Shown here in pieces: positions 3,409 through 47,439 of a stretch of 64,000 bases of DNA (positions are counted from its first letter, which is position 1; every line of letters begins with the position of its first letter). This DNA is from a bacterium (GTDB lineage: Bacteria; Patescibacteriota; Dojkabacteria; JAKAPS01; JAJZLI01), in NCBI GenBank assembly GCA_021816845.1, contig JAKAWT010000001.1, forward strand, positions 70,087 through 134,086. Direction: 5' to 3'. A program made the position numbers and the translations under genes. The notes under the pieces are model-generated. The model worked only from the letters and a program-made list of their open reading frames with translations, searched no databases and was not told the origin of the DNA.

Positions 3409-3431
3409 CTATAAATATTGTACTTTAGAAT

Positions 3432-3923: not shown

Positions 3924-3970
3924 AATTATAAATATAATATACTAGTTTAATATTATAAAATGAATACTAT

Positions 3971-4890: not shown

Positions 4891-4916
4891 AGAGATATTA
4901 TACCATATAATAGATC

Positions 4917-5132
4917 CTACTTTATAGAAAATGCAGTTCTTAAAGATTGATCAAATGGTAGTGTTCCTATATATATAGATATAATAAATAATATTACGAT
5001 GACAACAACTATAAATATTAGGCTCCATATCAATCTACGTGCAATTGGTTGATAATCATTATCTATAACATTACCTTTATCACGTGCTTTCAAAACTTCA
5101 ATCTCATATTTTAAACTTTTTTTTGATGCCAT
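4917..5132 (-). CDS. small hypothetical membrane protein (single TM)
   Basis: 71-aa ORF with a charged N-terminus and one strong TM helix (LIWSLIFIVVVIVILFIISIYIG). No homology recognised. Confidence 0.35.
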   Translation of the reverse strand: MASKKSLKYEIEVLKARDKGNVIDNDYQPIARRLIWSLIFIVVVIVILFIISIYIGTLPFDQSLRTAFSIK

Positions 5133-5227
5133 AATTCCAATATTGTCAACTATATATAAATGTATTATACTAAATTTTGTAATGTAATTACATATTAGTG
5201 TTTTGATATTAAGAACATATTTTAATT

Positions 5228-9411: not shown

Positions 9412-10356
9412 TCATTCAAATTTTACATTCCCATCTTGTATACCATTTTTAAATTCTCTTCCTGTAACATATTGTTTCCCTTCTCTTTGTATGATATCTA
9501 TTTTAAGATAATAGTCTGAGCATCCTACAAAAAGGTCTTTTGTATCATTGAAAATATGTCCTGGTATATTAGATTTTATATCAGTCAAAGTTGCCTCTTT
9601 AATATTACATAAGACTCCATTTAAATATGTCCATGCTGGATAGAAGGCCTTTATTTTATTTCTTATATCTGTAGATTTTATCCCCCAATCAATTCTACCT
9701 TTTTCTCTCTTGAAATCATCTATATAGCAATATGTAGCTTCTTGAGAATCTTGCTTTCTTGGAACAATATTGTTGAAACTAGAAATTGTCTTTTCTAAAA
9801 GATCTGATCCAAGAAGAGATAACTTACTTTCTAATGTTTTATAATTATCTTTATCATCTATATTTATTTTATCTTGCAATAATAGATCCCCTTCATCCAT
9901 CTTATCATTCATTAAAATTATACTGACACCAGTACTTTTATACCCTCTATATATTGCTGATTGTATTGGAGTTGCACCCCTTAGATCTGGAAGTAATGAT
10001 GCATGTACGTTAAGAAATTTATATCTAGATACAATGGATTTTGGAATAATTTTGCCAAATGAAGCTACTACTATATAGTCACAATTTGAAAGTTCAGAAT
10101 CATTTAGATCCTCAAATAATATAGTTTTTATATGATTTTTCTTTGCATATAATAAAACAGGGTTTGATTCAGGTAGAACAGGTTGACTAGATTTTGATCC
10201 ACTGGATTTTAAAACCACAGATTTTAAATCAAAACTTTTATAAATCATGTCTAGTATAGACAATGAAAAATCAGAAGACCCCAGAAATATTATTCTTGAA
10301 CCCTGATTTATATCTATTAAATTCGAATTCACTTGTTTTTTGTGATTTTTATACAT
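9412..10356 (-). CDS. fmt: methionyl-tRNA formyltransferase
   Basis: Formyltransferase N-domain motifs are present: IIFLGSSDFS, VVASFGKIIP, NVHASLLPDLRGATPIQSAIYRG and MDEGDLL. A C-terminal Fmt-type domain follows. Confidence 0.8.
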   Translation of the reverse strand: MYKNHKKQVNSNLIDINQGSRIIFLGSSDFSLSILDMIYKSFDLKSVVLKSSGSKSSQPVLPESNPVLLYAKKNHIKTILFEDLNDSELSNCDYIVVASFGKIIPKSIVSRYKFLNVHASLLPDLRGATPIQSAIYRGYKSTGVSIILMNDKMDEGDLLLQDKINIDDKDNYKTLESKLSLLGSDLLEKTISSFNNIVPRKQDSQEATYCYIDDFKREKGRIDWGIKSTDIRNKIKAFYPAWTYLNGVLCNIKEATLTDIKSNIPGHIFNDTKDLFVGCSDYYLKIDIIQREGKQYVTGREFKNGIQDGNVKFE

Positions 10357-10413: not shown

Positions 10414-11943
10414 ATGTTAATAACAATCATATTGTCAGCACTAGTAGTAGGGCTTGGTGGGTTTACTACTTATAAACAGTTATCTTTTACTAAAAATGAA
10501 CAAAAGTTAAAGGATGATCTAAAAAAAGCCAAAGAAGATTTTATAAAAATTAAAGAGGAAGAGAATAACTTGGCCTCAACAAAGGCTCAAGAAATAATTC
10601 TTGACGCTAAAAATAAAGCTTTTGATATTCTAAAAAATAGCGAAACAAAAGAAATTGAAATTAGAAAGCTTCAAAGTGAGAATGAACAGAAAATCCGTAA
10701 TAGACAGAAAGAAATTGATGAGAGGAGCTCTCGTCTAGATGTACAAGAGAAAAAACTAGAACGTGATAAAGAGAGTTTAACAGCTCAAAGGTCTGATTTA
10801 GAGAAAAAATTAGAAGAAATATCATCATTAACAAAAGATAACGCAAAAGCATTACTTCTTGAACAGCTTGACAAAGAGCTTGTTAATGAGAAAGCAAAAA
10901 GGATCAAAGAATTTGAAGATGATATAAGAGCAAAATCTGAAGATATATCAAAAGAGGTTCTAATAGAAACCATGCAAAAAACAGTTTCAGAATATATTGG
11001 ACCAGCAACAACTTCTATAGTAGATATTCCCAATGATGATGTAAAAGGTAGAATAATAGGGAAAGAAGGTAGGAATATCAAATATTTTGAAAAATTAACT
11101 GGTGTTGATTTAATAATAGATGATATGCCTGGTTCAATAACAGTATCTTGCTTTGACCCATTGCGCCGAGAAGTAGGTATCATAGCATTGAGAAATTTAA
11201 TAGAAGATAAAAGAATCCATCCTGGTAAAATAGAAGAATTAGTTAAAAAAGCCAAAGAAGATTTGTCAAAAGAGATAAGGAAATTTGGTGAAAAGATAGC
11301 TTATGATGCAGGAATCACGGGGTTAAGACCTGAATTAATACTTCTTCTTGGTAGAATGAAATATAGATATAGTTATGGACAAAACCTAGCTACACACTCA
11401 TTAGAAATGGTACAAATTGCAGAGAATCTTGCAATAAGTCTTAATGCAGATGTATACATGTCTAAAAAATGTGCATTATTCCATGATATTGGGAAAGTTA
11501 TAACTGCAGAACAAGAGGGATCTCATGTAGAACTTGGAGCAGAAATTGCAAGGAAATATAATCTAGAGGAACAGGTTATAAATGCCATATTCGCCCACCA
11601 TGATATGGCTGAACCAACAAGTGTTGAAAGTGCTATAACAAAAGTTGCAGATAAAATATCTGGAGGTAGACCTGGAGCACGTAATAATTCCTCAGAAATG
11701 TATTCTACAAGAATTAAACAACTAGAAGATACCGTAAAATCATTTGAAGGGGTTGAAGAAGCTTATGCAATATATGCTGGCCGTGAAGTGAGAGTTATAG
11801 TAAAACCGGATATTGTAGATGATGCAAGATTAGCATTACTTTCACACGAAATAGCTGAAAAAGTACAAAAAGAAAATACCTATCCGGGAACAGTACAAAT
11901 AACATTAATTAGAGAAACAAGAGCTGTTTCAAAAGCTAGTTAA
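10414..11943 (+). CDS. rny: ribonuclease Y
   Basis: N-terminal TM helix, long E/K-rich coiled coil, KH domain (IIGKEGRNIKYFEKLTGVDLIIDD), HD domain (HSLEMVQIAE...FHDIGK) and the C-terminal GREVRVIVKPD box. Confidence 0.85.
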   Translation: MLITIILSALVVGLGGFTTYKQLSFTKNEQKLKDDLKKAKEDFIKIKEEENNLASTKAQEIILDAKNKAFDILKNSETKEIEIRKLQSENEQKIRNRQKEIDERSSRLDVQEKKLERDKESLTAQRSDLEKKLEEISSLTKDNAKALLLEQLDKELVNEKAKRIKEFEDDIRAKSEDISKEVLIETMQKTVSEYIGPATTSIVDIPNDDVKGRIIGKEGRNIKYFEKLTGVDLIIDDMPGSITVSCFDPLRREVGIIALRNLIEDKRIHPGKIEELVKKAKEDLSKEIRKFGEKIAYDAGITGLRPELILLLGRMKYRYSYGQNLATHSLEMVQIAENLAISLNADVYMSKKCALFHDIGKVITAEQEGSHVELGAEIARKYNLEEQVINAIFAHHDMAEPTSVESAITKVADKISGGRPGARNNSSEMYSTRIKQLEDTVKSFEGVEEAYAIYAGREVRVIVKPDIVDDARLALLSHEIAEKVQKENTYPGTVQITLIRETRAVSKAS

Positions 11944-15909: not shown

Positions 15910-15960
15910 TATTTGCTGTTTTAACTAATTTAAAAGTATAATTAGATATGTTTTCATTAT

Positions 15961-16032
15961 TGGGAGATAGTTTAATGGCAAAACGCTACGCTCTGGACGT
16001 AGTAAGTCTAGGTTCGACTCCTAGTCTCCCAA
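15961..16032 (+). tRNA. tRNA-Gln (anticodon CTG)
   Basis: Manual cloverleaf fold: acceptor TGGGAGA/TCTCCCA with U1-A72, D-stem GTTT/AAAC, anticodon stem CTACG/CGTAG with loop CTCTGGA, T-arm CTAGG-TTCGACT-CCTAG. No encoded CCA. Confidence 0.7.
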
Positions 16033-16114
16033 ATAGTAGAGTATATCAAAAAAGGTATATACCTAATTGATCGAAAAGTGTATAATTTAGCAGAGAGAGG
16101 AATAAAAATTAAAT

Positions 16115-17345: not shown

Positions 17346-17430
17346 AATTCTAATCGGAGAGAGAGAGATTCGAACTCTCGATACCATAATGGTATACTAG
17401 CTTTCCAAGCCAGCGCACTAGGCCACTATG
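17346..17430 (-). tRNA. tRNA-Ser (anticodon GGA), type II with a long variable arm
   Basis: Reverse complement: GGAGAGG-TC-GCA-TAGTGGCCTAG-TGC-G-CTGGC-TTGGAAA-GCTAG, long variable arm (TATACCATTATGGTATC), GAGAG-TTCGAAT-CTCTC, then TCTCTCC-G. 3-bp D stem and ~85 nt length are typical of Ser. Confidence 0.75.
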
Positions 17431-17446
17431 CGACCTCTCCATAATG

Positions 17447-30770: not shown

Positions 30771-32988
<2,218 letters not shown>

Positions 32989-32992
<4 letters not shown>

Positions 32993-34389
32993 GATAGTAA
33001 AAATTTCATTAATTCTTGATTTTCAACATCTTCTTCTTTGAAATCAGATATATTTCTCAATTTCTTAATATTCCTTTTCATTTTATATACATCTTCTACT
33101 TTTATATCCATATAATGTGAGAGTACAACTGTAATTAATACTTTCTGTTCAAATAAAGTATATGATTCTCCAATATCTTGGTTAAATAGAATATTAATTT
33201 TTTCACCTCTATCCAAATCTGCAAGTACTGATGATGGCATATTAACTCCAAAATGAGAAAATTTATACGCTTGATCATATTTAATTAAGGCCATATTTAG
33301 TTTTTCTGATATAGATTGCATAAATATCTCCTGCACTCTTTTACCTATTCTAGATACTGAGATTCCAGTATTGATTGCTGGCCTTATTCCTTTTAAATAT
33401 AACTCCCTATCAAAAAAAAGTTGCCCATCTGTTATAGATATGACATTAGTAGGAATATATCCAGTGAAATCATTGTTCTGAACTGATATTATGGGAAGGG
33501 CAGTCAAAGATCCCTCGTTATTTTTCACCCTACCAGCTCTCTCAAGAAGTCTAGAGTGAAGAGAGAAAACATCAGCAGGATAAGAATCTTTACCTGGAAA
33601 AACACCCTCTATCAAGGATATTTCCCTATATGATTTAGCATGCTCTGTAAGATCATCATATACTATTATGACATCCTTTCCCATACTCCATAAAGCCTCT
33701 CCAATGGAACATCCTGCAAATGGAGCAAGATAGGACTCAACAGGAAGCAATTCTGCTTTAGCAACTAAAACAACAGAAAATTCCAGCGTTCCACTATCCT
33801 CAAGTGATGTGATAATGCTAGAGACTTGATCATTTGTCTTACCTATTAGTACATAAACAATAAGTGATTTATCTTTTTGGTTACGGATAAGATCAATAAG
33901 GAAAGTTGTCTTTCCAGTCTTATTATCTCCAAGGATAACTTCTCTTTGACCAAAAGCTAATGGGAATAATGTGTCTACAACAAGATTACCTGTTTCTATT
34001 TGTTTTTTTATATCATCCCTTTGTATTATTGATGGCGCATCCCTAAAAATATCCAATTCTTTTGTATCTAATATTTTTCCTTTCCCATCTAGAGGCTCTC
34101 CAAAAACATTTATTACTCTACCTAAAGTATTCAAACCAAAAGACACAGTAAGAGTATCTTGTAGAACTAAGGCCATTTGTCCGGGGATAATACCTCTATC
34201 TTCAATGAGTACAATCTTTGATATATCATCATTAATCTCATTAACAAATCCACGCGAATTAGATTCAAATAATATTTGGCTTCCAGTTTTTAAATTTCTA
34301 AAACCTCTAACCTCACAAAATATTGAGTTAACAGCAATAACTTCACCAACTGCAACCCCATTTTTTAAGTTCTCTTTAAAACTAATCAT
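32989..34389 (-). CDS. atpA: F0F1 ATP synthase subunit alpha
   Basis: Walker A (GDNKTGKTT) and alpha-type N-terminal beta-barrel. Confidence 0.9.
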
Positions 34390-34987
34390 TGGCTTTTATT
34401 TTTATATTGAAATCCTTTGATTCTAAATCATTTTGTATATCTTGATTTTTAGATACTACATCTCCCAATTTTGAATTTGTTGGATTGTGATCTATAGGAG
34501 CTATAATATCAATGATCTTATCAAGATTTTGGTTCAGTACATTAGAGTATGAGAAATCAAAATATGAGAAAGATGTTTTTAATACTACTCCTCCTCCTAT
34601 AGAATGATCTATCTTGTATGCAATGATAACATTCCCTTTAATTTTTTCTCTGAAGAAATTATATAATTTATCTTTGAAATCATCTGTAGCCTCTAAAGAT
34701 AATATTACATATATTTTTTTAGTATTCTTTTTAAAATCTAATAGAGCTGATTGTAATCGTTTTAGTTCTTCTATATCATCTGTTACTTTTCCATCTGTAC
34801 TGATCCCATAAGTATTAGAAAGCAAACTTAAAAGTGAAGTATTAATAACAAAATCACCCTCAAAATTGACATCTACTCTTCTTTGTATATCTCTAAATTC
34901 TATAAATTTTATATACAGATTCAAAGACCTAATACAAATATTAAGATATTCTATATCTCTAATTTTTGAAGCTAAATTATAATCCAT
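34382..34987 (-). CDS. atpH: F0F1 ATP synthase subunit delta (OSCP-like) with a C-terminal extension
   Basis: VIIAYKIDHSIGGGVVLKTSFSYFDFSYSNVLNQ resembles the delta C-domain. Operon position fits. Confidence 0.55.
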   Translation of the reverse strand: MDYNLASKIRDIEYLNICIRSLNLYIKFIEFRDIQRRVDVNFEGDFVINTSLLSLLSNTYGISTDGKVTDDIEELKRLQSALLDFKKNTKKIYVILSLEATDDFKDKLYNFFREKIKGNVIIAYKIDHSIGGGVVLKTSFSYFDFSYSNVLNQNLDKIIDIIAPIDHNPTNSKLGDVVSKNQDIQNDLESKDFNIKIKAND

Positions 34988-35837
34988 ACCTTATTTCATC
35001 TATATGTTTTTCTAAGATATCAAAAATATAATCTTCTTGATCTTCTAAAGATACAGTGATATTCAAAACTTCTTTTATAACATTAACTATTACTAAAGCT
35101 GAGTCCTTTCTTATTGAATTAATAAAGTCTTCCCTAAGCTTCTTTGCATCTTCATTTAATTGATCAGAAAAAACACTTACTTTTTCTTTTTCTTGGTTTG
35201 CAACATCATCTAGTATCTTGGTAGTTTTAGATCCAATCTCTTGGAGATAATTATTATATATTTCCATATTCATTTTGGAAAATGAATCTATGCTTTGATT
35301 AATCTTATTCAAAACTTCCTCTATAGTTTTTGAAATTTCCGCTTGAGATCCTGAAAGCATTGTCTGATAAGCACTTTCAAAACTTTGCACTTGTGCTTCT
35401 AGATTTCTATTTATATCCTGTAACCCTGAGACAAGAACATTGGAAGAATCAGACATAGCTGACTCTTGGGTGGAAAGATTCTTTTCTATCTCAGCAATTT
35501 TTTTGTTATATATATCTGTGAGCTTATTTTTAAAATCTTCTTCTATTTTTTTATACAGTTCTTGTATAACAAACGATTCATTGTTAACTTCATTAATAAT
35601 ATCTGTAGTCTTGTTCTCTACTTCACCAACAATTTTATTTACATCTTTATTGTCTATATTTGCAGATTTTAGTATAACCTTTGAATCTAAACCTTTAGTG
35701 TCAATTGAATTTTTATTAACCCCAGCATCAAGATGTCCAGCATCAGGATGCCCAGATTTAGAACGCATCAGGTAGAAAACGAGTAACAAAAACAATAATA
35801 TAAGTAAAACTATTACAATTATAACAATCAGTAACAT
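34977..35837 (-). CDS. atpF: ATP synthase subunit b-like protein (N-terminal TM plus long coiled coil). Unusually long at 286 aa.
   Basis: Single N-terminal TM helix (LLIVIIVIVLLILLFLLLVFYL) and an E/K/Q-rich helical body. First gene of the atp block. Identity inferred mainly from position. Confidence 0.45.
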   Translation of the reverse strand: MLLIVIIVIVLLILLFLLLVFYLMRSKSGHPDAGHLDAGVNKNSIDTKGLDSKVILKSANIDNKDVNKIVGEVENKTTDIINEVNNESFVIQELYKKIEEDFKNKLTDIYNKKIAEIEKNLSTQESAMSDSSNVLVSGLQDINRNLEAQVQSFESAYQTMLSGSQAEISKTIEEVLNKINQSIDSFSKMNMEIYNNYLQEIGSKTTKILDDVANQEKEKVSVFSDQLNEDAKKLREDFINSIRKDSALVIVNVIKEVLNITVSLEDQEDYIFDILEKHIDEIRYGL

Positions 35838-35950: not shown

Positions 35951-36772
35951 ATGGATGTTAAAATTTTTTATAAATCATTACTTCTTCTGTTTTTATCATC
36001 ATTATTCCTATTTGTCCCTATTAGAGATATAAATGCAAATAGCATTGGTAACATAGCACAAAACTATATTGCTTTAACTCACGGAATGCAAACTGGAGAA
36101 ATAGTATCATTAATATCAAAAAATACTTTTGCAGGAGTATATCCATCAGCAAAACCCAATGACCCTAATGTTTTTGGGGTAATTGATTTTAATAGTACTG
36201 TAATTACAGGAATAACAGCTCCTAATAGAATCCCTATTATTCAATCAGGAACAATTAATGTATACGTATCAAACTTAAATGGAAATATCCAAAAAGGTGA
36301 TCTTATAACTTCATCAATAGTTCCTGGAGTAGGAGAAAAAAATACAAATACAGGAATGGTAATAGGTGTAGCTAATGCATCTTTTTTGAAGAGTAATATA
36401 ATAAAAACAGAAACTATAAATGTGAAAGGTAAAAATGTCAAAATAAGTATAGAAAAAATTCCAGTACTATTAAGTTTTCAAGAATATTATGATAACAATG
36501 CCCTACAAAGCCAATTTAATGGATTTCTTCCAAATTTTATAAAAAAAGGAGTTTCTTTTGTAAATATCATCATAGCTATAATTATAGTATTGATGGGTTT
36601 TATAATTTTTCTAATTGGAACTTTATCATCATTAAGACAGCTTATGGGTGCTATGATAAGAAATCCTACATCAAAAAGATTAGCAATAAATAGTGCGATA
36701 ATAGTCATTTTTATATTACTTTTAATTTTCATCCTTACAATAGCTATGGGTTATGCATTCTTAGTAATATAA
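35951..36772 (+). CDS. family C protein: secreted domain plus C-terminal 2-TM hairpin (RNP loop). Paralog of 29738..30490. First gene of the surface-protein cluster.
   Basis: Signal peptide with cleavage-like site (ANS), conserved GNIQKGD/IPGVGEK blocks, and C-terminal LRQLMGAMIRNPTSKRLAINSAIIVIFILLLIFILTIAMGYAFLVI. Confidence 0.55.
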   Translation: MDVKIFYKSLLLLFLSSLFLFVPIRDINANSIGNIAQNYIALTHGMQTGEIVSLISKNTFAGVYPSAKPNDPNVFGVIDFNSTVITGITAPNRIPIIQSGTINVYVSNLNGNIQKGDLITSSIVPGVGEKNTNTGMVIGVANASFLKSNIIKTETINVKGKNVKISIEKIPVLLSFQEYYDNNALQSQFNGFLPNFIKKGVSFVNIIIAIIIVLMGFIIFLIGTLSSLRQLMGAMIRNPTSKRLAINSAIIVIFILLLIFILTIAMGYAFLVI

Positions 36773-36831: not shown

Positions 36832-37950
36832 ATGAATAAAAATATGAAAATAATGAAAAGAATGGCGTTAAGGATAACAAATATATTCTTAATATTATCT
36901 TTATCGTTATATGCTTTTTCAGCATTACCTTTCTTAGCTAATACAGATGCAGCATCTTTGACTCCATTAACTGATGTTATGTCTAATTCTGGAGGATATG
37001 GGACAGGTGGCCCTCAAACAGTTTCAACTGCGAATGTATCTCACTCTTTTTCGTATACAACCCCAACTGCATATACAACCTCAAGTACTATTGATATATA
37101 TATACAAACAGCATCATCAATAGGTGGAGGTGAAGCAGCTACTGCTTTCTCTTCTGTAGCTGCAACTACCTCTACTGTAACAGTAAATGGTACTGCTGCA
37201 ACTGCAGTGACTCTAACAAATGGGGTATCAGATTCTAATTTTGCTGGATACACATTTACTGAAGTTGCAATTACTGTACCTGTAGCTATATCATCTGGTG
37301 CAACTGTTACAATAAATGGTATTACTGCAACTAACCCTTCTACTGCTTCATCATCAACAAATCAGTATGTTATTGATATCCAAGACTCAAATGGTAATGA
37401 CGGATATATGGCTGTACCTATAGTCACTAATGCATCAGTTGCCGTAACAGGAAGAGTTACCCCTTCTATAAATTTTAGCCTATCATCAAATACAACATCA
37501 TTTGGGGTAATGCAACTTGGAGTAGTTAACACATCGTCACCTGCAACAACATTGACCGTTTCAACAAATGCTCAATCTGGTGCAGTTGTATATGTATATG
37601 ATCATGGTAATGGAACATCTGGAGGTTTATATAACTCTATAGCAAATCATCTTATCCCATCATCTAGTACAACTTTAGCTGGAGGAACTGAAGGATATGG
37701 TATTAATGCTGCAACTACTTCAACCAGTGGTACTGGAGGAGTTATAGGTACAATGTCTGTATCATCACCATATAATGGGACAGGAGATGCAGTTGGAGCT
37801 TTAGCTTTATCATCTACAACTCTAGCCACTGGTACAGCTCCCATGTACGGAGTTACTATACAAGTAAACTATCTTGCAGCTATCAGCGTCACTACCCCTG
37901 CTGGTATATACAATGATGATGTAACCTACGTAGCTACTGGAAAATTCTAA
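36832..37950 (+). CDS. family A secreted S/T/A-rich protein. Conserved N-terminus SLTPLTDVMSN and C-terminal module ...VNYLAAISVTTPAGIYNDDVTYVATGKF.
   Basis: Signal peptide (…LANTDA^AS). The C-terminal ~130 aa align with 39931..40890 and 45562..47439 (TGRVTPSINFSLSSNTTSFGV..., TEGYGINA..., SPYNGTGDAVGAL). Confidence 0.6.
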   Translation: MNKNMKIMKRMALRITNIFLILSLSLYAFSALPFLANTDAASLTPLTDVMSNSGGYGTGGPQTVSTANVSHSFSYTTPTAYTTSSTIDIYIQTASSIGGGEAATAFSSVAATTSTVTVNGTAATAVTLTNGVSDSNFAGYTFTEVAITVPVAISSGATVTINGITATNPSTASSSTNQYVIDIQDSNGNDGYMAVPIVTNASVAVTGRVTPSINFSLSSNTTSFGVMQLGVVNTSSPATTLTVSTNAQSGAVVYVYDHGNGTSGGLYNSIANHLIPSSSTTLAGGTEGYGINAATTSTSGTGGVIGTMSVSSPYNGTGDAVGALALSSTTLATGTAPMYGVTIQVNYLAAISVTTPAGIYNDDVTYVATGKF

Positions 37951-37975: not shown

Positions 37976-38977
37976 ATGAAAAATTTTATAGTCTCTAAAA
38001 AAACATATATTGTTTTTGTAACAGTTTTAATAATATTATTACTCTCCCCTATTAATTCTTTTGCACAGCAACCAAACAGCACATCTACATTTTCTGGTGC
38101 TTTAAACTCCTCAACAAAATCTCATGAAGGAGCTACAACAAGTGGTATTACAGTATCACCTCTTCTAACGACAATATTTCTGAATAAAACAGAGAACTCT
38201 ACCCAATATATAACTTTATTTAATAACAACTCAACCCCAATAACTGTCAGTTTAGCATTCTCCAATTTTATATCAAAAAACCAATTTGGAGCACCTGAAT
38301 TTTTAGGTTTTTCAAAAGGACAAATACAGGATACAAATTTATTAATACAATCTCCTACTTCTATAACGCTTCCACCTTTAAAAACAATAAAAGTACCGTT
38401 AACAATTCTCACAAATAATAATACTCAACCAGGAGAATACTTCATTGGAGCTTTTGCTGTCATTAAAGGAAATACTATTAGATCAGCACCGGTATCTATA
38501 GCTACAAATTCTGCTATAGGATCATTATTTTTAATTAGAATTAATGGAAAAGTTTCTGAGACAGGATATATACAATCTTTTTCTGCAACAAAAAGTTTGT
38601 TTACTGGTGGGGCTGTAAACTTTCAGGCAATATTTAAAGACACAGGGAACGTAGACCTTATACCTCAAGGAGTAATTGATATATATAATATGTTTGGGAA
38701 GAGAGTAGCAAGTATTACATTTAACCAAAATAGAGCTATAGTCCTACCTGTTGGTGTGAATAGTAGAATATATAATTCTTCATGGAATCCTGAATCTTTG
38801 GCTTTTGGAGAATTCACAGCAAAATTATTTTTAACATATGGAACAACTACAGTAACAACCATATATCAATCTACAAATTTTTGGATAATACCTTTATGGC
38901 TTGAAATACTTGCAATAATAATAGTTATACTTATAGTTACATGGATAGTAAGGTTACGCTTAAAATTAAGGACATAA
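37976..38977 (+). CDS. family B protein: secreted ~270-aa domain, C-terminal TM anchor and basic tail (…WIVRLRLKLRT)
   Basis: Signal peptide (…NSFA^QQ). Shares LIRINGKVSETGYIQSFSATK with ITINGKIISSGYIQNFGATK in 44642..45568, and a similar architecture with 42390..43304. Confidence 0.6.
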   Translation: MKNFIVSKKTYIVFVTVLIILLLSPINSFAQQPNSTSTFSGALNSSTKSHEGATTSGITVSPLLTTIFLNKTENSTQYITLFNNNSTPITVSLAFSNFISKNQFGAPEFLGFSKGQIQDTNLLIQSPTSITLPPLKTIKVPLTILTNNNTQPGEYFIGAFAVIKGNTIRSAPVSIATNSAIGSLFLIRINGKVSETGYIQSFSATKSLFTGGAVNFQAIFKDTGNVDLIPQGVIDIYNMFGKRVASITFNQNRAIVLPVGVNSRIYNSSWNPESLAFGEFTAKLFLTYGTTTVTTIYQSTNFWIIPLWLEILAIIIVILIVTWIVRLRLKLRT

Positions 38978-39882
38978 TACCTAGACACCTAGTGTCTGAA
39001 CACATTATCTTAACAAATAAAAGTTTAAGTAACTTAATTAGTTATATTGTATCTTTAGTATTTTTATTCATATCTTTGTTTATCTTGATAATAAACATTT
39101 CTTCCTCAGTGTATGCCCAGAATTTTTCACAACCATTTACCCAAAGTGCAGGTAAACAAACTGTAAATATTCACGCTTATGCCCCACTACTAGATAACTG
39201 GGCATATATAATATCCAGTCAGGGGAAAATATATATTAGACAAGAAAATACGATATATATGAATGAAAAGATTCCTGTATATGTACAAACATTTGGAACA
39301 AATAAAACACCACTCCGTGATCAAACAATTTTTCTGTCATCACCTGATACGAAATATGGTCTACATATAATCGAGCCTAAAATCCCAACAAATGTTAAAG
39401 GATTAACAATCGGCTATATAACATCAACATACAATCAACCTATTATGTACACAATCATAGCAACTGACACGACATATGCAGAAGCCCCAGTAGTATTTAA
39501 AAACATGCTTCAAGTACAATACTATCCATCAAGAAACTATAAGCCTCCATTCTTTACAAATATTCTTAATTCCTTAGGAAATTTATTCTCATCAACAACA
39601 AATATCTTAGATATATTTAGTATTGTCATTGCAATTATCACATTTTTAATAGTGGAAAGAAAATTGCTAATATCAAAAATATCTATAACAATACAAAATC
39701 AATATAGAGTTTTATTTGGTATGCTAAGGATCTTAGTGATACCATATATTATATCAATTTTTGCGTTATACAACCAACACTCATTAATTAATTATATATC
39801 TATTGCACTCCTTGTACTGGTTAGTGTACATTTTATATTAGTATATATAAAAAATCTGAAGGAAGCAGTCTCTAAATCTTAG
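38941..39882 (+). CDS. membrane protein: N-terminal anchor, ~170-aa extracytoplasmic domain and a C-terminal 3-TM domain. Start uncertain.
   Basis: Overlaps the previous gene by 37 nt, so the real start may be further downstream. Hydrophobic C-terminal segments: IFSIVIAIITFLIV, VLFGMLRILVIPYIISIFALY, ISIALLVLVSVHFILVYI. Confidence 0.45.
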   Translation: MDSKVTLKIKDIIPRHLVSEHIILTNKSLSNLISYIVSLVFLFISLFILIINISSSVYAQNFSQPFTQSAGKQTVNIHAYAPLLDNWAYIISSQGKIYIRQENTIYMNEKIPVYVQTFGTNKTPLRDQTIFLSSPDTKYGLHIIEPKIPTNVKGLTIGYITSTYNQPIMYTIIATDTTYAEAPVVFKNMLQVQYYPSRNYKPPFFTNILNSLGNLFSSTTNILDIFSIVIAIITFLIVERKLLISKISITIQNQYRVLFGMLRILVIPYIISIFALYNQHSLINYISIALLVLVSVHFILVYIKNLKEAVSKS

Positions 39883-39930
39883 GATACAGATTTTAGAGAT
39901 TGTATTGCTTGATAATATAAAGATATAAAT

Positions 39931-40890
39931 ATGAACACTTTAACTAAGGATAACCTTAACAAAATTAAAAAAAGTGTGTTAGTTTTGGTACTTATATTAT
40001 TAGTATTGTCTACAGGTATTTTATATTCTGTAAATGCAGCAACACTGACTCCAATATCAGATACTATGTCAAACCAAACAGTATCAGTGTCATCAGCAAA
40101 TAATTTCTCATTTGATGCAGTATCTGGTATTCCAGCTTCAGGAACAGTGACCATAACATTTCCATCAGGGTTTACTTCTGTAGCAGTGACTTCAGCAACA
40201 TCATCTATGTCAGGTGCAACATTTTCAGTTACTGGTAATGTTGTAACAGTAACAAACGGTACTACTGCTGTAACAGCCGGAACTACAGTAACGATATCTA
40301 ATATAACAGCCATAAATCCTAGTACAGCATCATCTACATCTACTCAATATATTATTACAATATCTGATTCAGGAGGTGACAACGCATCAATTGCTGTTGC
40401 CATAGTAACAAGCTCTCAAGTAACTATATCTGCAACAGTAAATCCTACAATAACTTTTTCAATCTCGTCCAATAGTATAAGTTTTGGTGTGTTAACTGCA
40501 ACCACAGTTTCATCTCAAACTAATACATTAACACTTTCAACTAATGCTTCTAAAGGGGCTAATATCACAGTCTATGACCTTAATGCTGGACTATTACAAA
40601 ATGTCTCATCTGGACACTTAATTGCATCTTCTACAGCAACCCTATCTGCAGGAACAGAAGGGTATGGTATTAATGGATCTGGGGCGGGAGGATTAACAGT
40701 TGTATCTCCGTATAATGGCACAGGTGATGCGGTTGGAGCATTGGTAAAGACAGCGCAAAATTTAGCATCCATATCTGTACCAGTATCAGGAGGGACAGTA
40801 ACTGTAAATTATTTGGCTGCAATATCTGCCGTAACCCCAGCAGGAACATATGCTGATACAATAACATATATAGCTACAGGGAATTTTTAG
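39931..40890 (+). CDS. family A secreted protein (N-terminus ATLTPISDTMSNQ, C-terminus ...VNYLAAISAVTPAGTYADTITYIATGNF)
   Basis: Signal peptide (…SVNA^AT). Shares a ~270-nt near-identical DNA segment with 45562..47439. The C-terminal module is conserved with 36832..37950. Confidence 0.6.
   Translation: MNTLTKDNLNKIKKSVLVLVLILLVLSTGILYSVNAATLTPISDTMSNQTVSVSSANNFSFDAVSGIPASGTVTITFPSGFTSVAVTSATSSMSGATFSVTGNVVTVTNGTTAVTAGTTVTISNITAINPSTASSTSTQYIITISDSGGDNASIAVAIVTSSQVTISATVNPTITFSISSNSISFGVLTATTVSSQTNTLTLSTNASKGANITVYDLNAGLLQNVSSGHLIASSTATLSAGTEGYGINGSGAGGLTVVSPYNGTGDAVGALVKTAQNLASISVPVSGGTVTVNYLAAISAVTPAGTYADTITYIATGNF
40069..40330. repeat. ~270-bp near-identical direct repeat, copy 1 (inside 39931..40890)
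   Basis: Sequence starting ATCAGATACTATGTCAAACCAAACAGTATCAG and running to ...ACTACAGTAACGATATCTAATATAACAGC is ~95% identical to 45675..45945. Confidence 0.8.
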
Positions 40891-40964
40891 AAATTTACTT
40901 TATAAGAATCATCTAGATATATTTAATATTAAACTCTATTCTGCTATTATTTATATATTAAAGT

Positions 40965-42386
40965 ATGAAAAAATATATATTCCTCTTTATATTTTGTTTT
41001 ATAATATTATTTGTACCAAAGATACTGGTGCCTGAAACCGTTCTTGCCCAAAATTATGTATCTACAGACTATATTTTATCAGATCCAGTTTTTGGAGAAT
41101 CAGGTCCTTATGTATCATCTCCATCATTTAAAGAGAGAAGTGCTCTTGGACAAACAGCTACAGGTATATCACAAAGTACCAATTTTATTTTAAAATCAGG
41201 ATTTGAATATTATTCTGGACAATCTGTTCCATCAATTACAATGTCACTAAATACCAATTTGATTAACTTCAATACTGTAGCTCCAAATACAATAGTCAAA
41301 TCTCCAACAAATTCAATCATTACAATATCATCCAATGCAGAATCTGGATATAACCTTTATATAGAGCAAAATAATAATCTTACAAACCAACAAGGGGATA
41401 CTATACCTCAAGTTTCAAATGGAGCAACTACAACTACTGCAGCACCATGGACATCGGCATCATATTATGGTTTAGGATATAACTGTTCTTCAGCGAATAC
41501 GTATGAACAAGCAGTTCTTGTAAATTCTCCAATTGGATTCTGGTCACTAGGAGAAACAACAGGTACTACAGCATACGATTTATCTGGAAACGGGAACAAT
41601 GGAACATATACAGGAGGATATACTCAAGGAGCCCCTGGCCCTATATCTAATTCTAATTTGGGAAATTCTACACTATTTAATGGATCTAATTCATATGTAT
41701 CACTCCCAAATGTAATACAACCATATACAATAATTACTATATCCTTATGGTTTAAAACAACATCTGATGGAATAATATTAGGATATCAAAATGCTACGGT
41801 AGGATCGGCTCAAAATGATTATGTACCAATTATATACATAGGAACTGATGGTAAATTAAGAGCTGAATTATGGAATGGTTTAGTTGATCCTATAACTACA
41901 ACTAATACTGTCAATGATGGTAGATGGCATAATATTACTCTGGTTGCAAACTCCACTACTCAAAGTTTATATTTTGACAATTCTCTTGTAGGTACATTAT
42001 CTGGAACAATAACTAATTTAACTATGACTTATAATCAGTTAGGTACTGGGTACGGATCAAGTTGGCCATCAACAAATGGATCATGGTTTTACTTTAAAGG
42101 AGGTATCTCTAACGTATCTATATATACATCTGCCTTATCATCTTCTCAAATACAAACCCTTTTTAATGATGGTATAAATTCTACTCAAGCGTTTTGTTCT
42201 CCCGATTTTATAAATACAAATTATTATAGACAACTATCATCTACAACAAATACTGAATTTGCATCATATTCCTCTATAGCAACAAACCAAACAATAACTG
42301 TTGGTTATGCAGTTAATGTATCAAACATTCAAGCATCAGGAATATATACAAACAATATTATATATACATTAACAGGAAATTACTAA
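40965..42386 (+). CDS. secreted protein with a LamG/concanavalin-A-like lectin domain and a family-A-like C-terminal end (…IIYTLTGNY)
   Basis: YDLSGNGNNGTYTGG...GAPGPI...LFNGSNSYVSLPN...ITISLWFKT...DGRWHNITLV is the LamG_3/ConA-like jelly-roll pattern. The C-terminal ...ASGIYTNNIIYTLTGNY is like the family A ends. Confidence 0.6.
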   Translation: MKKYIFLFIFCFIILFVPKILVPETVLAQNYVSTDYILSDPVFGESGPYVSSPSFKERSALGQTATGISQSTNFILKSGFEYYSGQSVPSITMSLNTNLINFNTVAPNTIVKSPTNSIITISSNAESGYNLYIEQNNNLTNQQGDTIPQVSNGATTTTAAPWTSASYYGLGYNCSSANTYEQAVLVNSPIGFWSLGETTGTTAYDLSGNGNNGTYTGGYTQGAPGPISNSNLGNSTLFNGSNSYVSLPNVIQPYTIITISLWFKTTSDGIILGYQNATVGSAQNDYVPIIYIGTDGKLRAELWNGLVDPITTTNTVNDGRWHNITLVANSTTQSLYFDNSLVGTLSGTITNLTMTYNQLGTGYGSSWPSTNGSWFYFKGGISNVSIYTSALSSSQIQTLFNDGINSTQAFCSPDFINTNYYRQLSSTTNTEFASYSSIATNQTITVGYAVNVSNIQASGIYTNNIIYTLTGNY

Positions 42387-42389
42387 ATT

Positions 42390-43304
42390 ATGCAATTAAT
42401 CAAAAAATTTATAATTTCAATTATAGTATTATCGTTTCCTCTTGTATCCTCAATAAATACCTTCGCAATCTCGCCACAGGAAAGTATAAGAGTTACCCCT
42501 GCTTATATATCTCTAACTGAAAAATCCGGATCAAGTGCGTATGAGAATCTATCAATATTCAATAATTCCAACACTACTTTAAATCTTAATATATATACAC
42601 GAGGTATACAGTATGATCATAAAAAATTGATACTTATAAATTCTATATTACAATCTAATATTGAAAATTGGATTTCTATAAAAACTACAAAAATAAGTGT
42701 ACAACCACATAAAACACAGAATGTGCCAGTATATATTAATGTACCAAAAAATGAGAAATATGGTTCATACAATGGTGGAATAGTTATTTCAAATATACCA
42801 CAATCAAAAGTAGGAAATTCTACAATATTCGGAAGAATAATTGTGAACGTTTTTGTGAATATAAGAGGAAAAAATAAAGGATACTCAAATATAAATATAT
42901 CAAATTTAAATCACCCTTCTTTAGTATTTCAAAATTCAGCAATATTAAATTTAGAAACTTATAATCCTGGCCCGTATAATAATGCATATAAAACTAATAT
43001 TTACACATCATCAATATTCGGTTTATCAAATACTAATATTGGTAGAATAGGATTAGAAAATATACTTGTAGGGCAAAAAAGATACAATACTGTAGATTTA
43101 AAAAATTTAAAAATAGGTATAAATTATGTACAGATACAGCTTTCAAATATAGGTAATAATACTAAATCAAATGTGAATTTTACTATTTTCTATATACCAT
43201 TCTATACGATATATATTCTAATACTTATATTAATAGTAATATTTATGTACCATCTATATAGATTAAGAAAAATACAAAGAAAATTAAAAAACCGTAAGCA
43301 ATAA
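42390..43304 (+). CDS. family B protein: secreted domain, C-terminal TM anchor and basic tail (…YRLRKIQRKLKNRKQ)
   Basis: Signal peptide (…NTFA^IS) and the same architecture as 37976..38977 and 44642..45568. Confidence 0.55.
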   Translation: MQLIKKFIISIIVLSFPLVSSINTFAISPQESIRVTPAYISLTEKSGSSAYENLSIFNNSNTTLNLNIYTRGIQYDHKKLILINSILQSNIENWISIKTTKISVQPHKTQNVPVYINVPKNEKYGSYNGGIVISNIPQSKVGNSTIFGRIIVNVFVNIRGKNKGYSNINISNLNHPSLVFQNSAILNLETYNPGPYNNAYKTNIYTSSIFGLSNTNIGRIGLENILVGQKRYNTVDLKNLKIGINYVQIQLSNIGNNTKSNVNFTIFYIPFYTIYILILILIVIFMYHLYRLRKIQRKLKNRKQ

Positions 43305-43494
43305 TCATTATTAAATTCTGTAATAGTTGATTGATTAAAATTTCATGGTAAAAAATACTAAATATACCATTTTTTTTAAATCTCAACTTCCACTATATAT
43401 GTTTTAGCTATTTTGAATTTTTTCATATAACTATTATTACATTAAACAACCTAGTTACTAAATACTAATATATCTATGTATTTAGATTTTATCG

Positions 43495-44496
43495 CTATTT
43501 AAAAATGTATATACCATCTTTAATATCATATGACTTACCACATTTTTGACATACTAATTTTTTAGAATATAAATTCTTAAGATCTCCATGACATATTGGG
43601 CAGCACAAACTATCTTTAAAAATATCTTTAATATCTTTTGCTTTATCTAAAAAATTATTTTTTAAATTATCATCTTTTAAAAGATATAAAAATATGCTTG
43701 GACCAAAATATGTTTTAGAAAATATAATTCCAAATTTATTATCCAAAGATATTAATATGTTCGTATTAAATAGTTTTTTGAAATATTTTTGTCTGAAATT
43801 TGATGCTGAAAAAACTTTCTTAACTATTAAGTGATTTTTTACTAGAGTTTTAATAATATATGAAGGTGAAAAATTTAAGAATATTTGATCATTTAAAAAT
43901 CCTTGAGAATCATTTTTATGCGGAATGGAATAAATATCTTGTTTTCTAAAATCTTTATCTTTAAAATGTCTCATTCTTGATAACATATGATCCTTATTTG
44001 CAAATTCCAAAATAAAACTATTTGATATCACTCTTGATATTTCACTTATTGCAAGATCAGGATTTTCTATATGATGTAAAACCCTAACTAACATGCCTGA
44101 GGAGATTGATCCATCTTTAAATGGCATGTTATATATGTCCCCACAAACTTTAAAAACATTTGAATCTAGATTATTTTTACCTTCTGCTTTTTTTAGATTA
44201 GAAAATGAGTAATCAAAAAGTATTGAATATGAATATTTATTCTGGTATAGATCAGTGAGCCTACCATACCCTCCACCTATATCTATAAATGACCTCGAGT
44301 TGTTGGGTTTAGACTTAAATAGATTATTATCCTTTAATAATTTAGATAGTATATTCCTTTCAGATTGGTTTTCATATTCCCTATCTTTCCAATATTTCCT
44401 ATAATCATATTCTAAATTTGAATCATAATCTTGGACTCGTATTTTTGTATTCAAACTTTTTTTATTAATACTTCTAGTATTGGTCATAGGGTTCAT
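43495..44496 (-). CDS. class I SAM-dependent methyltransferase fused to a C-terminal Trm112-like zinc-ribbon domain
   Basis: Motif I (FIDIGGGYGRLTDL) and motif post-I/II (VCGDIYNMPFKDGSISSGMLVRVLHH). C-terminal CCPICHGDLK...CQKCGKSYDIKDGIYIF is a Trm112/DUF343-like zinc ribbon. Confidence 0.65.
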   Translation of the reverse strand: MNPMTNTRSINKKSLNTKIRVQDYDSNLEYDYRKYWKDREYENQSERNILSKLLKDNNLFKSKPNNSRSFIDIGGGYGRLTDLYQNKYSYSILFDYSFSNLKKAEGKNNLDSNVFKVCGDIYNMPFKDGSISSGMLVRVLHHIENPDLAISEISRVISNSFILEFANKDHMLSRMRHFKDKDFRKQDIYSIPHKNDSQGFLNDQIFLNFSPSYIIKTLVKNHLIVKKVFSASNFRQKYFKKLFNTNILISLDNKFGIIFSKTYFGPSIFLYLLKDDNLKNNFLDKAKDIKDIFKDSLCCPICHGDLKNLYSKKLVCQKCGKSYDIKDGIYIFK

Positions 44497-44641
44497 TTTA
44501 CATTAAAAGTATAATATTTTGTAGTCCCTATAAATATTATACTTTTATTATGTTAAACTATATAAAATAGACTTGGATCCAGATCCAATGGATCAGAACT
44601 ATTGGATCAAGATCCTCTAATCTAATCAAGTCTAGACTATT

Positions 44642-45568
44642 ATGAAAAATTTTATAAAATTAACTTTATTATTACTGCCAATACTAACAATATTTTTCGC
44701 TAGTAATATATACGCTAAAATTATTCCTGACAAAGGAATCACTCTATCACCTGTAATATCTAAGATAACATTAAATAAGGGAGAAACTTATAATGGTAAA
44801 CTATATATAACATATAATAATAACTCAAAAGTTAATGCAAATATTTTAGTTTATGCATTTAGACAATCAGGTGACACTGCACATCCGAAATTCTCAAACA
44901 AAATAAATAAACTTTCTGAATCAATTCATTGGATTAAGATTCAAAAAAATGTAACTTTGTATCCACATAAATCCATTGCAATTAACTATACAATAAATGT
45001 GGCAAATAATGCATCTCCAGGTGGACATTTCTTATCAATAATAGTATCAATAACTAAATCAGGGAATGAAAAGATTGTCGAATCTGTAGGATCTCTACTT
45101 ATTATTACTATAAATGGAAAAATTATATCTTCTGGATATATACAAAATTTTGGAGCTACAAAAAAAATATTTTTAGAAAATCCAATAAATTTATATCTAG
45201 ACTTTGCAAATACTGGGAATATACAACTATCACCATTTGGGTATATTACAATTTCAAATATATTTGGAAATACAATAAAAGTAATAGAAATAAATAAAAA
45301 TCAATCTTTAGATTTACCAAAAAGTACGAGATTGTATACTACTAATTTTAATTTGAAAAATTTTATTAATCAGTTTGGGATATACCAGGCAACTTTGAAT
45401 CTTACATATGGATACCCAGGGCATTTCGTAAATACTCAAAGTTCTAGTACATTCTATTATTTTAATTATTTATACCTAATTATATTACTTCTTATCATAA
45501 TTGTTATCATACTTTATATAATTAAAAGAAAACATAATAAAAAATTATTGTTTTTTAAAAAATGGTAA
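44642..45568 (+). CDS. family B protein: secreted domain, C-terminal TM anchor and basic tail (…IKRKHNKKLLFFKKW)
   Basis: Signal peptide (…NIYA^KI). Conserved block with 37976..38977. The stop overlaps the start region of the next family-A gene. Confidence 0.6.
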   Translation: MKNFIKLTLLLLPILTIFFASNIYAKIIPDKGITLSPVISKITLNKGETYNGKLYITYNNNSKVNANILVYAFRQSGDTAHPKFSNKINKLSESIHWIKIQKNVTLYPHKSIAINYTINVANNASPGGHFLSIIVSITKSGNEKIVESVGSLLIITINGKIISSGYIQNFGATKKIFLENPINLYLDFANTGNIQLSPFGYITISNIFGNTIKVIEINKNQSLDLPKSTRLYTTNFNLKNFINQFGIYQATLNLTYGYPGHFVNTQSSSTFYYFNYLYLIILLLIIIVIILYIIKRKHNKKLLFFKKW

Positions 45569-47439
45569 AAAAATATTCAATAAAATTTGTTACAGTATTA
45601 AGTATATTCGGATTATTTTTCTTATCAATATATCCAATATTTACTAGTGTACAAGCCGCTTTAATAACACCTTTATCAGATACTATGTCAAACCAAACAG
45701 TATCAGGATCATCAGCAAATAATTTCTCTTTTGATGCAGTATCTGGTATTCCAGCTTCAGGAACAGTGACCATAACATTTCCATCAGGGTTTACTTCTGT
45801 ATCAGTGACTTCAGCAACATCATCTATGTCAGGTGCAACATTTTCAGTTACTGGTAATGTTATAACAGTGACAAATGGTACCACTGCTATAACAGCTGGA
45901 ACTACAGTAACCATATCTAATATAACAGCTACAAACCCATCTATTGCCTCATCATCGACAACACAATATATAATAACAATATCTACATCAGGTGGTGATC
46001 AGGCATCAGTTGGAGTAGTAATAGTAGCATCGTCAACCTATGGATCTGGACCTTCAGGAGATATATATCAACAAGCTATAACCATAAATAGTACAAATAC
46101 AAGTACACTAACTAACTATCAGGTGGAAGTAACATTAAATACTCAAACACTCATATCTGCAGGTCAAATGCAGGCAGATTGTGCAGATATTAGGTTTACA
46201 GATTCTTCTGGGAATCTTCTTCCTTATTGGATTGAATCAGGCTGTGATACAACCTCAACTCAAATATGGATTAAAATTAATACTATAGCAGCATCAACAA
46301 ATACAACAATTTTTTTATATTATGGATCATTAAACGCAGCACCGGAGAGTAATGGACATACTACATTCAATTACTTTGACCAAGGAAGTCAAATCAATAA
46401 TTGGATAACTTCTGGATCATCTGGGCAGAATACAGCTACAGGAGATCCAGCTCCTTCATATTATGCAAACTCTTCAAACGGTGATTATATGTATAAAAAC
46501 ATAAACCTTACATCAAATGAATTACTAACCTTTGATGCTAATACAAATGCATTAGGAGATTTTTATTTTCTTACAAACTCCTCTGGGGCTGGGCAGATGT
46601 ATAGGACAGGTATAAGTTCTGGATGGTTCGGTTTTGCCACAACTAATTCTTGGACATCTTGGACTGCACCTACAGGTACATCTCCAATAAGTGCAAATAC
46701 TTGGAATAAATACCAAATTGCGATTACTTCTCCAACCTCTGCAACATTGTATTATAAACTAACATCAGGAGATTCTCCATTAATAAATGGTACATTACTT
46801 GGAACATATACAATTTCTAATAATGGAGGATATATAGGACTTGTAGGGGACGCAGCAGGATCAAGTAATATTACCTACTGGGATAATATTATTGTTAGAC
46901 AGTACTCTTCCCCAGAACCAACAACAACAGTATCTACAACAGTCACTAATCTGACAAATAACCAGCTACAACTTGAAGTAGGTGTTAATCCTTTTATTAC
47001 ATTCCAGGTTAGTTCTAATTCACTAAACATAGGAACTCTATCACCAACTTTGGTATCATCAGCTACAAATTCATTAACATTATCATCTAATGCTTCCAAT
47101 GGAAGCAATGTATCTGTAATGGATGCTAATGCTGGATTATATAATTCTGCTGATAGTCATAAAATAATATCTACAACCACAACTCTTCAAGCTGGAGTAG
47201 AAGGATATGGAATAAATGCATCTACTACATATTCAGGTTTAAATATAGAATACCCATATAATGGTACTGGAGATAGTATTGGTGGGCTATCCCAAACTGC
47301 ATCATCAACATTATGTTCTTCTACAACAACTGTAAATGCAGCAAATATTGTTATAAATTATCTTGCATCGATTTCAAATATAACCCCATCAGGTCCATAT
47401 CAAGATCAAGTCATTTTCATAGCTACAGGCAATTTCTAA
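45562..47439 (+). CDS. family A secreted protein with an inserted DUF2341/LamG-like module (625 aa)
   Basis: N-terminus ALITPLSDTMSNQ... and C-terminus ...VINYLASISNITPSGPYQDQVIFIATGNF. The central segment ...CADIRFTDSSGNLLPYWIESG...TQIWIKIN...TIFLYYG... matches the DUF2341 hallmark. More jelly-roll-like sequence follows. Confidence 0.6.
   Translation: MVKKYSIKFVTVLSIFGLFFLSIYPIFTSVQAALITPLSDTMSNQTVSGSSANNFSFDAVSGIPASGTVTITFPSGFTSVSVTSATSSMSGATFSVTGNVITVTNGTTAITAGTTVTISNITATNPSIASSSTTQYIITISTSGGDQASVGVVIVASSTYGSGPSGDIYQQAITINSTNTSTLTNYQVEVTLNTQTLISAGQMQADCADIRFTDSSGNLLPYWIESGCDTTSTQIWIKINTIAASTNTTIFLYYGSLNAAPESNGHTTFNYFDQGSQINNWITSGSSGQNTATGDPAPSYYANSSNGDYMYKNINLTSNELLTFDANTNALGDFYFLTNSSGAGQMYRTGISSGWFGFATTNSWTSWTAPTGTSPISANTWNKYQIAITSPTSATLYYKLTSGDSPLINGTLLGTYTISNNGGYIGLVGDAAGSSNITYWDNIIVRQYSSPEPTTTVSTTVTNLTNNQLQLEVGVNPFITFQVSSNSLNIGTLSPTLVSSATNSLTLSSNASNGSNVSVMDANAGLYNSADSHKIISTTTTLQAGVEGYGINASTTYSGLNIEYPYNGTGDSIGGLSQTASSTLCSSTTTVNAANIVINYLASISNITPSGPYQDQVIFIATGNF
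45675..45945. repeat. ~270-bp near-identical direct repeat, copy 2 (inside 45562..47439)
   Basis: ~95% identical at the DNA level to 40069..40330. Also explains the look-alike antisense ORFs 39879..40313 and 45555..45914. Confidence 0.8.

Follow-up and report, generated by a model that had tools for sequence, protein, structure and literature searches.

How can two genes that have diverged over most of their length still share a segment of almost identical DNA? The question is raised by a 64,000-nucleotide (nt) stretch of the contig JAKAWT010000001.1 (positions 70,087 to 134,086, forward strand; Patescibacteriota, Dojkabacteria), called the window below, and by two genes in it, gene A and gene B, which encode pilins resembling those of the recently described Pam pili. 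The first-pass annotation of the window had reported a near-identical segment in these two genes and ascribed it to gene conversion or recent duplication. The segment is real, and we consider it very probable that it arose by interlocus gene conversion between Pam-like pilin paralogs lying in direct orientation 5.6 kb apart; the duplication half of the proposal did not hold. The features concerned are as follows, in window coordinates.

39931..40890, + strand: gene A, a two-domain Pam-like pilin of 319 residues (NF058581 match below cutoff; structure model with a confidence score of 92.5)
45562..47439, + strand: gene B, a Pam-like pilin of 625 residues with a DUF2341-containing insertion (Pfam, NCBIfam and alignment to gene A)
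40055..40242, + strand: core tract, gene A copy (codons 43-104; first six strands of the modeled N-terminal beta-sandwich)
45674..45861, + strand: core tract, gene B copy (codons 39-100)
40243..40410, + strand: decaying 3' shoulder, gene A
45862..46029, + strand: decaying 3' shoulder, gene B (alignment to gene A)

Gene A encodes a signal peptide, an N-terminal beta-sandwich (residues ~42-156), a linker, and a C-terminal immunoglobulin (Ig)-like domain (residues ~174-319). Its AlphaFold2 (AF2) model, built from a 46-sequence alignment (mean predicted local distance difference test score, pLDDT, 92.5), showed a helix at residues 6-27, strands from 42 to 156, a linker, and strands from 174 to 317, which is the two-domain pilin architecture including the Sec signal peptide. 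The N-terminal domain of gene B extends to residue 158 and is followed by an insertion of ~310 residues with a Pfam DUF2341 domain at residues 206-281 (E 1.3e-21); the linker and C-terminal domain begin at residue ~466. Gene B shares its first 7 nt with the chaperone-like gene that precedes it. Residues 43-104 of gene A are referred to as the core, and the rest of the N-terminal domain as the shoulder.

Self-comparison of the window, a dot-plot-type check that had been proposed earlier, returned a single pair of long repeats and no further long repeat in the whole 64 kb. It is a direct repeat with an offset of 5619 nt (40029-40328 versus 45648-45947; 300 nt, 90% identity), and both segments lie in frame within the two open reading frames (ORFs). 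The core copies were identical at 184 of 188 nt (97.9%), with the four mismatches at 40088, 40089, 40110, and 40183 and a longest exact run of 72 nt (40111-40182), whereas identity in the flanks of the gene pair was 51-69%. The 5' edge of the tract is sharp (8 mismatches in the 14 nt of 40041-40054). On the 3' side, identity between the genes fell stepwise, to 82% over residues 105-134, 69% over residues 135-162, and 56% in the C-terminal domain. Identity to the gene B copy was 92.8% over 40055-40330, and a blastn local alignment of 40055-40410 with 45674-46029 gave 88.3%. The figure of ~95% given earlier for 40069-40330 was therefore slightly high (92.4% measured), and the tract begins 14 nt earlier in gene A than had been noted.

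Synonymous divergence (dS) was calculated by the Nei-Gojobori method on the codon alignment of genes A and B, using gene A numbering. It was 0.92 in the signal peptide, 0.04 in the core (codons 43-104), 0.53 at codons 105-134, 1.03 at codons 135-162, and 1.86, a saturated value, in the linker and C-terminal domain. The codon-wise alignment thus bore out the expectation that the flanks are far more diverged than the segment. Third codon positions were identical in 60 of the 62 core codons versus 42% outside the tract (binomial P ~2e-20), and the longest run of identical third positions was 46, compared with a maximum of 27 in 100,000 permutations (p < 1e-5). Codons 36-41, just 5' of the tract, served as an internal control. 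Their amino acids are similar or conserved and their synonymous sites differ, indicating that constraint on the protein is not enough to make the nucleotides identical. Between orthologues, dS in the core was normal (0.63-0.80), so the core is under no unusual constraint at the nucleotide level. The ratio of nonsynonymous to synonymous divergence (dN/dS) between orthologues was 0.13-0.15 in the tract region, indicating that this region is under purifying selection.

The two genes were then compared with loci of relatives (designated L followed by a number), which were obtained from the gene A homologues and, for 42 further loci, from a scan of GTDB species genomes with a 16-sequence alignment. 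Orthologues of both A and B were present in L002, L006, and L008, so the paralogs predate these lineages; gene B was also found in L010, L011, and L050. In the linker and C-terminal domain, identity was 0.77-0.79 between window A and the A orthologues and 0.76 between window B and the L008 orthologue of B, compared with 0.57-0.64 between A and B everywhere. In the core, window A and window B were 0.98 identical, and every other orthologous or paralogous pair was at 0.75-0.88. A and B of L002 and L006 were only ~77% identical in the tract stretch, and these sequences grouped by gene, not by genome. The identity matrices are thus incongruent: within the tract the two window copies cluster together, and elsewhere each clusters with its orthologues. 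The paralog-specific state is back at the diagnostic site 40243, beyond which each gene is nearer its own orthologues; the last event was therefore ~190 nt long. Taken together, the low core dS, the normal orthologue dS, and the incongruence argue for a non-reciprocal transfer between old paralogs that is specific to the window lineage. The third pilin paralog of the operon, which is 41% identical to gene A in amino acids and ~52% identical in nucleotides across the tract, took no part in the conversion.

It had also been suggested that recombination among the paralogs could drive the DUF2341 insertion. The comparisons do not favor this. Full-length gene B orthologues in L008 and L010 (61-63% identity) carry the same insertion, as do L011 (58% across the insert) and the partial gene of L050 (86% at the nucleotide level); the insertion therefore long predates the tract and has no connection with it. 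In addition, the core ends at residue 104, ~54 codons before the insertion point at residue 158. As a separate observation, a DUF2341-containing block interrupts the N-terminal domain of the gene B orthologue at L006:9607-11140. An exact repeat of 113 nt in this locus (9867-9979 = 11028-11140) ends precisely at the contig end; the arrangement is either a real domain rearrangement or a misassembly.

Several other explanations of the near-identity were weighed. Because the window is a short-read contig from a metagenome-assembled genome, reads of two diverged copies or strains could have been collapsed or cross-joined to give a false near-identity. Scans of metagenomes with the gene B protein and with a degenerate DNA pattern for the N-terminal domain gave no match from either. 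However, the four core differences and the 72-nt longest exact run, which should be below typical read length (that of this assembly is unchecked), make the copies separable. Proteins identical to those of gene A and gene B are each recorded on 4-7 NCBI/ENA contigs, among them a separate contig of 484 kb. A collapse would not be expected to produce the 3' decay or to retain paralog-specific sites, and the same pattern was found in the unrelated assembly of L012. An assembly artefact is thus very unlikely. We regard as extremely unlikely a recent duplication of the entire gene, or of its 5' part, after which all but this segment diverged rapidly. Genes of this operon family do undergo tandem duplication: at L002:1-2119 the third pilin (orthologue of 36832-37950) is duplicated as a whole gene, with 90% identity over 951 nt and a dS of 0.34. 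Genes A and B, in contrast, have separate orthologues in relatives and are older than those lineages, synonymous sites in their C-terminal domains are saturated, and their tract stretch is only ~77-83% identical in relatives.

The near-identity had further been read as a hallmark of antigenically variable surface proteins, and the tract could be a variable cassette in programmed antigenic or phase variation of the Neisseria pilE/pilS type. In that system, diversity is created as variant segments are moved into a single expression locus from numerous silent cassettes. These are surface pilins of an episymbiont, and the modules of the neighboring tip protein vary strongly from one relative to another (473, 776, and 1071 residues), both of which would suit such a system. 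RecA-type gene conversion acting on pilin genes is likewise common to the two cases. In the window, however, there are just two copies, both complete genes of the expressed type, and the 64 kb contain no silent or truncated donor cassettes. Conversion has made them alike in a region whose low dN/dS between orthologues shows no diversifying selection, so that the outcome is identity, not diversity. The effect on the pilins is homogenising, and we consider cassette variation highly improbable. Finally, an element embedded in the tract, whether an antisense gene, an RNA structure, or a regulatory site, could hold its nucleotides under purifying selection, and long antisense ORFs do lie over both copies. 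The normal synonymous divergence between orthologues speaks against this, no Rfam match was found at the tract, and the antisense frame is broken by stops in both L008 genes, in gene B of L002, and in the third paralog. An embedded element therefore seems to us close to negligible as an explanation, and the antisense ORFs, which exist as listed in the first-pass annotation, are artefacts, as it had stated.

39879..40313, - strand: antisense ORF of 144 residues, artefact (mirror of the sense tract; stops in orthologues)
45555..45914, - strand: antisense ORF of 119 residues, artefact (stops in orthologues)

A further argument against these ORFs from wobble positions was dropped, since in this frame the third positions of sense and antisense codons fall together.

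To determine whether gene conversion of this kind recurs, all fetched loci were compared with themselves and 13 within-locus pilin pairs were subjected to codon analysis. The distant locus L012, whose pilins are ~43% identical to gene A, contains tandem pilin genes (3308-4273 and 4283-5263) that share an exact run of 384 nt (3404-3787 = 4394-4777), extending from just past the signal peptide to the point where the N-terminal domain meets the linker; dS in their C-terminal domains was 1.74. Both L012 pilins match NF058581 weakly, and the next gene passes the Pfam WxLIP_PGBD cutoff. In L008, dS between A and B was 0.46 in the core versus 1.38 in the C-terminal domain, and the two genes form the closest pair for either of them in the dS matrix; this is suggestive only as a further case. 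No comparable tract was detected by codon analysis in the pilin pairs of L013, L015, L016, L017, L010, L011, L044, and L048. The comparisons thus indicate that the N-terminal domain has been hit by conversion in at least two independent lineages. Repeats in L015 were rejected as pilin genes, being internal repeats of a giant ORF. This ORF (L015:4860-12263; >2468 residues, running off the locus) lies downstream of a tandem pilin pair, and its internal repeats of ~500 nt are 97% identical.

Pam pili were described in Ca. Mycosynbacter amalyticus, with PamA, PamB, and PamT and the chaperones PamC and PamD (Troman et al., 2026; bioRxiv 10.64898/2026.03.03.709456). They are thought to make the first contact between episymbionts of the candidate phyla radiation (CPR) and their hosts. 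The NCBIfam model NF058581 (CPR_Pam_pilin_C) matched the C-terminal ~140 residues of all three window pilins over its full length, with E-values of 1.5e-7 to 1.8e-10 and 31.6-41.1 bits against a cutoff of 55 (gene A, E 1.8e-10, 41 bits; gene B residues 484-625, E 5e-10). A Pfam search of gene A gave no match, and neither did a sequence search of gene A against PDB sequences; a pilin profile search of the PDB gave only a weak match to CfaE (E 0.011). Foldseek with the gene A model returned only generic two-Ig-domain adhesins and FocH from a PDB copy that held no Pam entry. Like Pam pilins, the window pilin combines a Sec signal peptide, an N-terminal beta-sandwich, a linker, and a C-terminal Ig-like domain. 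All named sequences among the 103 homologues of gene A belong to Patescibacteria. The locus is treated here as a putative, distant Pam-like donor-strand pilus operon whose scores lie below the NCBI thresholds for family membership. The mature N-terminus, A-A-x-L-T-P-x-S-D-T-M-S (window 39931-40060), ranks with the most strongly conserved motifs of the whole pilin family; residues A36, A37, and D44 hardly vary, and L012 has the motif as well.

What would such an event do to the pilus? Tracts of this kind arise by RecA-dependent recombination and stop where homology fails. The latest event would have overwritten ~190 nt, corresponding to the first six strands of the N-terminal beta-sandwich. Neither the signal peptides nor the last part of the N-terminal domain would have been affected, and the same holds for the DUF2341 insertion of gene B, for the linker strand, and for the C-terminal acceptor domains. 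The 3' shoulder, with its intermediate dS, probably represents older and longer tracts. As a consequence, the plain pilin A and pilin B with its lectin-like module would show the same N-terminal domain and distinct linkers and C-terminal domains. In the solved Pam filaments, the linear fibre is stabilised by extra contacts of the N-terminal domain with neighboring subunits, and a pilin of one type can be followed by one of another type in the same filament (Troman et al., 2026). We infer that the shared N-terminal domain may keep B compatible with A in one filament, and that the diverged linker and C-terminal domain and the dedicated chaperone-like genes may keep chaperone pairing and assembly order separate.

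A broader proposal is that conversion of the N-terminal domain is selected and recurrent, a cassette sharing in which co-polymerising pilins retain an identical packing domain and their divergent linkers and C-terminal domains encode assembly order and chaperone pairing. We put this forward tentatively and consider it rather unlikely. If it were true, the domain-exact boundaries in L012 and the hits in three lineages would amount to a structural rule of this pilus class. A neutral account, in which the divergence of the flanks sets the limits of the tract, fits equally well and is inseparable from the selective one.

Several points weigh against gene conversion between Pam-like pilins as set out here, or against parts of it. 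Only 3 clean diagnostic sites lie in the core, and they are mixed as to the direction of transfer; the tract is nearest the gene B orthologue of L050 (0.87-0.88), which may simply be the closest relative. The L008 signal comes from ~51 synonymous sites. Assembly quality is supported indirectly, membership in the Pam family depends on sub-cutoff scores of hidden Markov models (HMMs), and the compatibility of A and B in co-assembly is putative.

The process itself is textbook gene conversion, and what is new is the instance in a recently described pilus family; its domain-precise recurrence is a modest point of interest. Interlocus conversion and concerted evolution are known in bacterial paralogs such as tuf genes, rRNA operons, and fimbrial subunit genes. 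As in those cases, a short tract has been transferred non-reciprocally between direct repeats; dS is low within it and saturated beyond it, and the paralogs group by genome in it. The window differs from those cases in that the tract lies within one domain of a two-domain pilin and that the same domain has been hit in independent lineages. Pam-like subunit genes thus appear to swap their N-terminal domain by recombination, repeatedly and independently, and the donor-strand and acceptor parts stay distinct. This offers an evolutionary handle on which subunit parts need to agree between pilins that are expressed together and which need to differ, and it is a caution that phylogenies and orthology calls from whole pilin genes will be mosaic. 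The Pam preprint notes the low sequence identity of PamA and PamB and does not mention recombination, gene conversion, paralogs, or WxL proteins (Troman et al., 2026).

The other genes of the operon and its surroundings are listed below.

30771..35837, - strand: F-type ATP synthase operon, directly upstream of the pilus operon on the opposite strand (Pfam annotations)
35951..36772, + strand: secreted or membrane protein of 273 residues, first gene of the operon (no Pfam or NCBIfam match; kept in L004)
36832..37950, + strand: third pilin paralog, 372 residues, with a different N-terminal domain (NF058581, E 1.5e-7)
37976..38977, + strand: chaperone-like protein 1, with signal peptide, beta domains, and C-terminal transmembrane (TM) helix (34% identical to 44642-45568)
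38941..39882, + strand: membrane protein of 313 residues within the operon (no Pfam or NCBIfam match; position conserved in L002, L004, and L006)
40965..42386, + strand: PamT-like protein with a LamG/ConA-like lectin domain, candidate tip adhesin (NF058579, Laminin_G_3)
42390..43304, + strand: chaperone-like protein 2, paralog of 44642 (Pfam WxLIP_PGBD, E 2.3e-4, below cutoff)
43495..44496, - strand: class I methyltransferase with a Trm112-like zinc ribbon, splitting the operon (Methyltransf_11, E 3e-13; Trm112p, E 1e-5)
44642..45568, + strand: chaperone-like protein 3, directly upstream of gene B (AF2 pLDDT 82; two beta domains and a C-terminal helix, 276-307)

In the Pam operon, the PapD/FimC-like chaperones carry a membrane helix at the C-terminus, and ATP synthase genes are located nearby (Troman et al., 2026). 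The window operon resembles it in having several pilin paralogs, a PamT-like gene, a Patescibacteria host, two-domain chaperone-like proteins with a C-terminal TM helix, and an adjoining ATP synthase operon; the named homologues and loci are overwhelmingly from Patescibacteria, in keeping with a CPR host. It differs from the Pam operon in having three chaperone-like genes instead of two, a DUF2341 insertion in gene B, a LamG domain in the PamT-like gene, and HMM scores under the curated cutoffs (pilin, 31-41 versus 55 bits; PamT, 40 versus 240 bits). The three chaperone-like ORFs are paralogous, and all encode a signal peptide and a C-terminal TM helix, which for 37976-38977 is evident from the translation; the model of 44642-45568 has the fold of an operon-encoded PapD/FimC-like chaperone with a C-terminal TM anchor.

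In a Foldseek search of this model against the PDB, WxLIP of Enterococcus faecium (9i1y/9i25) ranked first (E ~1e-11), followed by CsuC, CfaA, and FimC (E 1e-7 to 1e-8). A chaperone profile search of the PDB gave only a weak match, EfmWxLIP1 (E 0.09). At E <= 0.1, NCBIfam returned no family for 37976 or 42390 and only a spurious STEVOR match for 44642, and no Pam chaperone model matched; Pfam WxLIP_PGBD scored above its cutoff in L012:5274-6257 and below it in the window. WxL clusters consist of small WxL proteins, large WxL proteins, and WxLIP (DUF916, DUF3324, and a TM helix) (PMC10599100). The window chaperone-like proteins share the WxLIP architecture of these Firmicutes clusters, and WxLIP is their best structural match. 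WxL proteins, however, are described as peptidoglycan-bound surface proteins, not filaments (PMC10599100), and the window pilins gave no Pfam match to a WxL domain. The Pam-like chaperones and WxLIP systems may be related; no paper linking WxL with Patescibacteria was found in the literature searched. In many Patescibacteria loci (L020-L036, L042, L045, and L047), the pilin C-terminal domain occurs in two forms, as a protein of ~200 residues consisting of this domain only and as the C-terminal end of an adjoining protein of 600-1770 residues. This arrangement mirrors the small-WxL/large-WxL pair. The titles of these loci name Paceibacterota, Wolfebacteria, Brennerbacteria, Jorgensenbacteria, and others, so that the family reaches beyond the classes emphasised in the preprint.

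The PamT-like protein (40965..42386) matched Pfam Laminin_G_3 (E 3e-17) and NF058579 (CPR_pilus_PamT; E 2e-10, 40 bits versus a cutoff of 240), the latter only over model positions 6-142 of 241. Across relatives, its N-terminal ~115 and C-terminal ~250 residues are kept and the middle is swapped. The protein has 473 residues with a LamG domain in the window, 776 residues with Kelch-like repeats at L002:5292-7622, and 1071 residues with many ~150-nt repeats in the gene at L006:3288-6503. The pattern suggests that modules turn over rapidly in this candidate tip adhesin.

The position of the methyltransferase in the operon is taken by a class I methyltransferase in L002 and L006 as well. A post-translational modification on Ser356 of PamA has been reported for Pam (Troman et al., 2026). 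The minus strand at 34977-35837, in the interval that separates the ATP synthase delta-subunit gene from the pilus operon, encodes a 286-residue protein with weak matches to apolipoprotein-like helical repeats; this protein is conserved in L004. The window has a G+C content of ~29%, and a scan for promoters and terminators in this AT-rich DNA found fewer sites than in shuffled sequences and was uninformative. The only matches at the Rfam gathering level in the window were class A RNase P RNA (4517-4884, - strand, 179 bits), tRNA-Gln(CTG) (15960-16033, + strand), and tRNA-Ser(GGA) (17354-17441, - strand).

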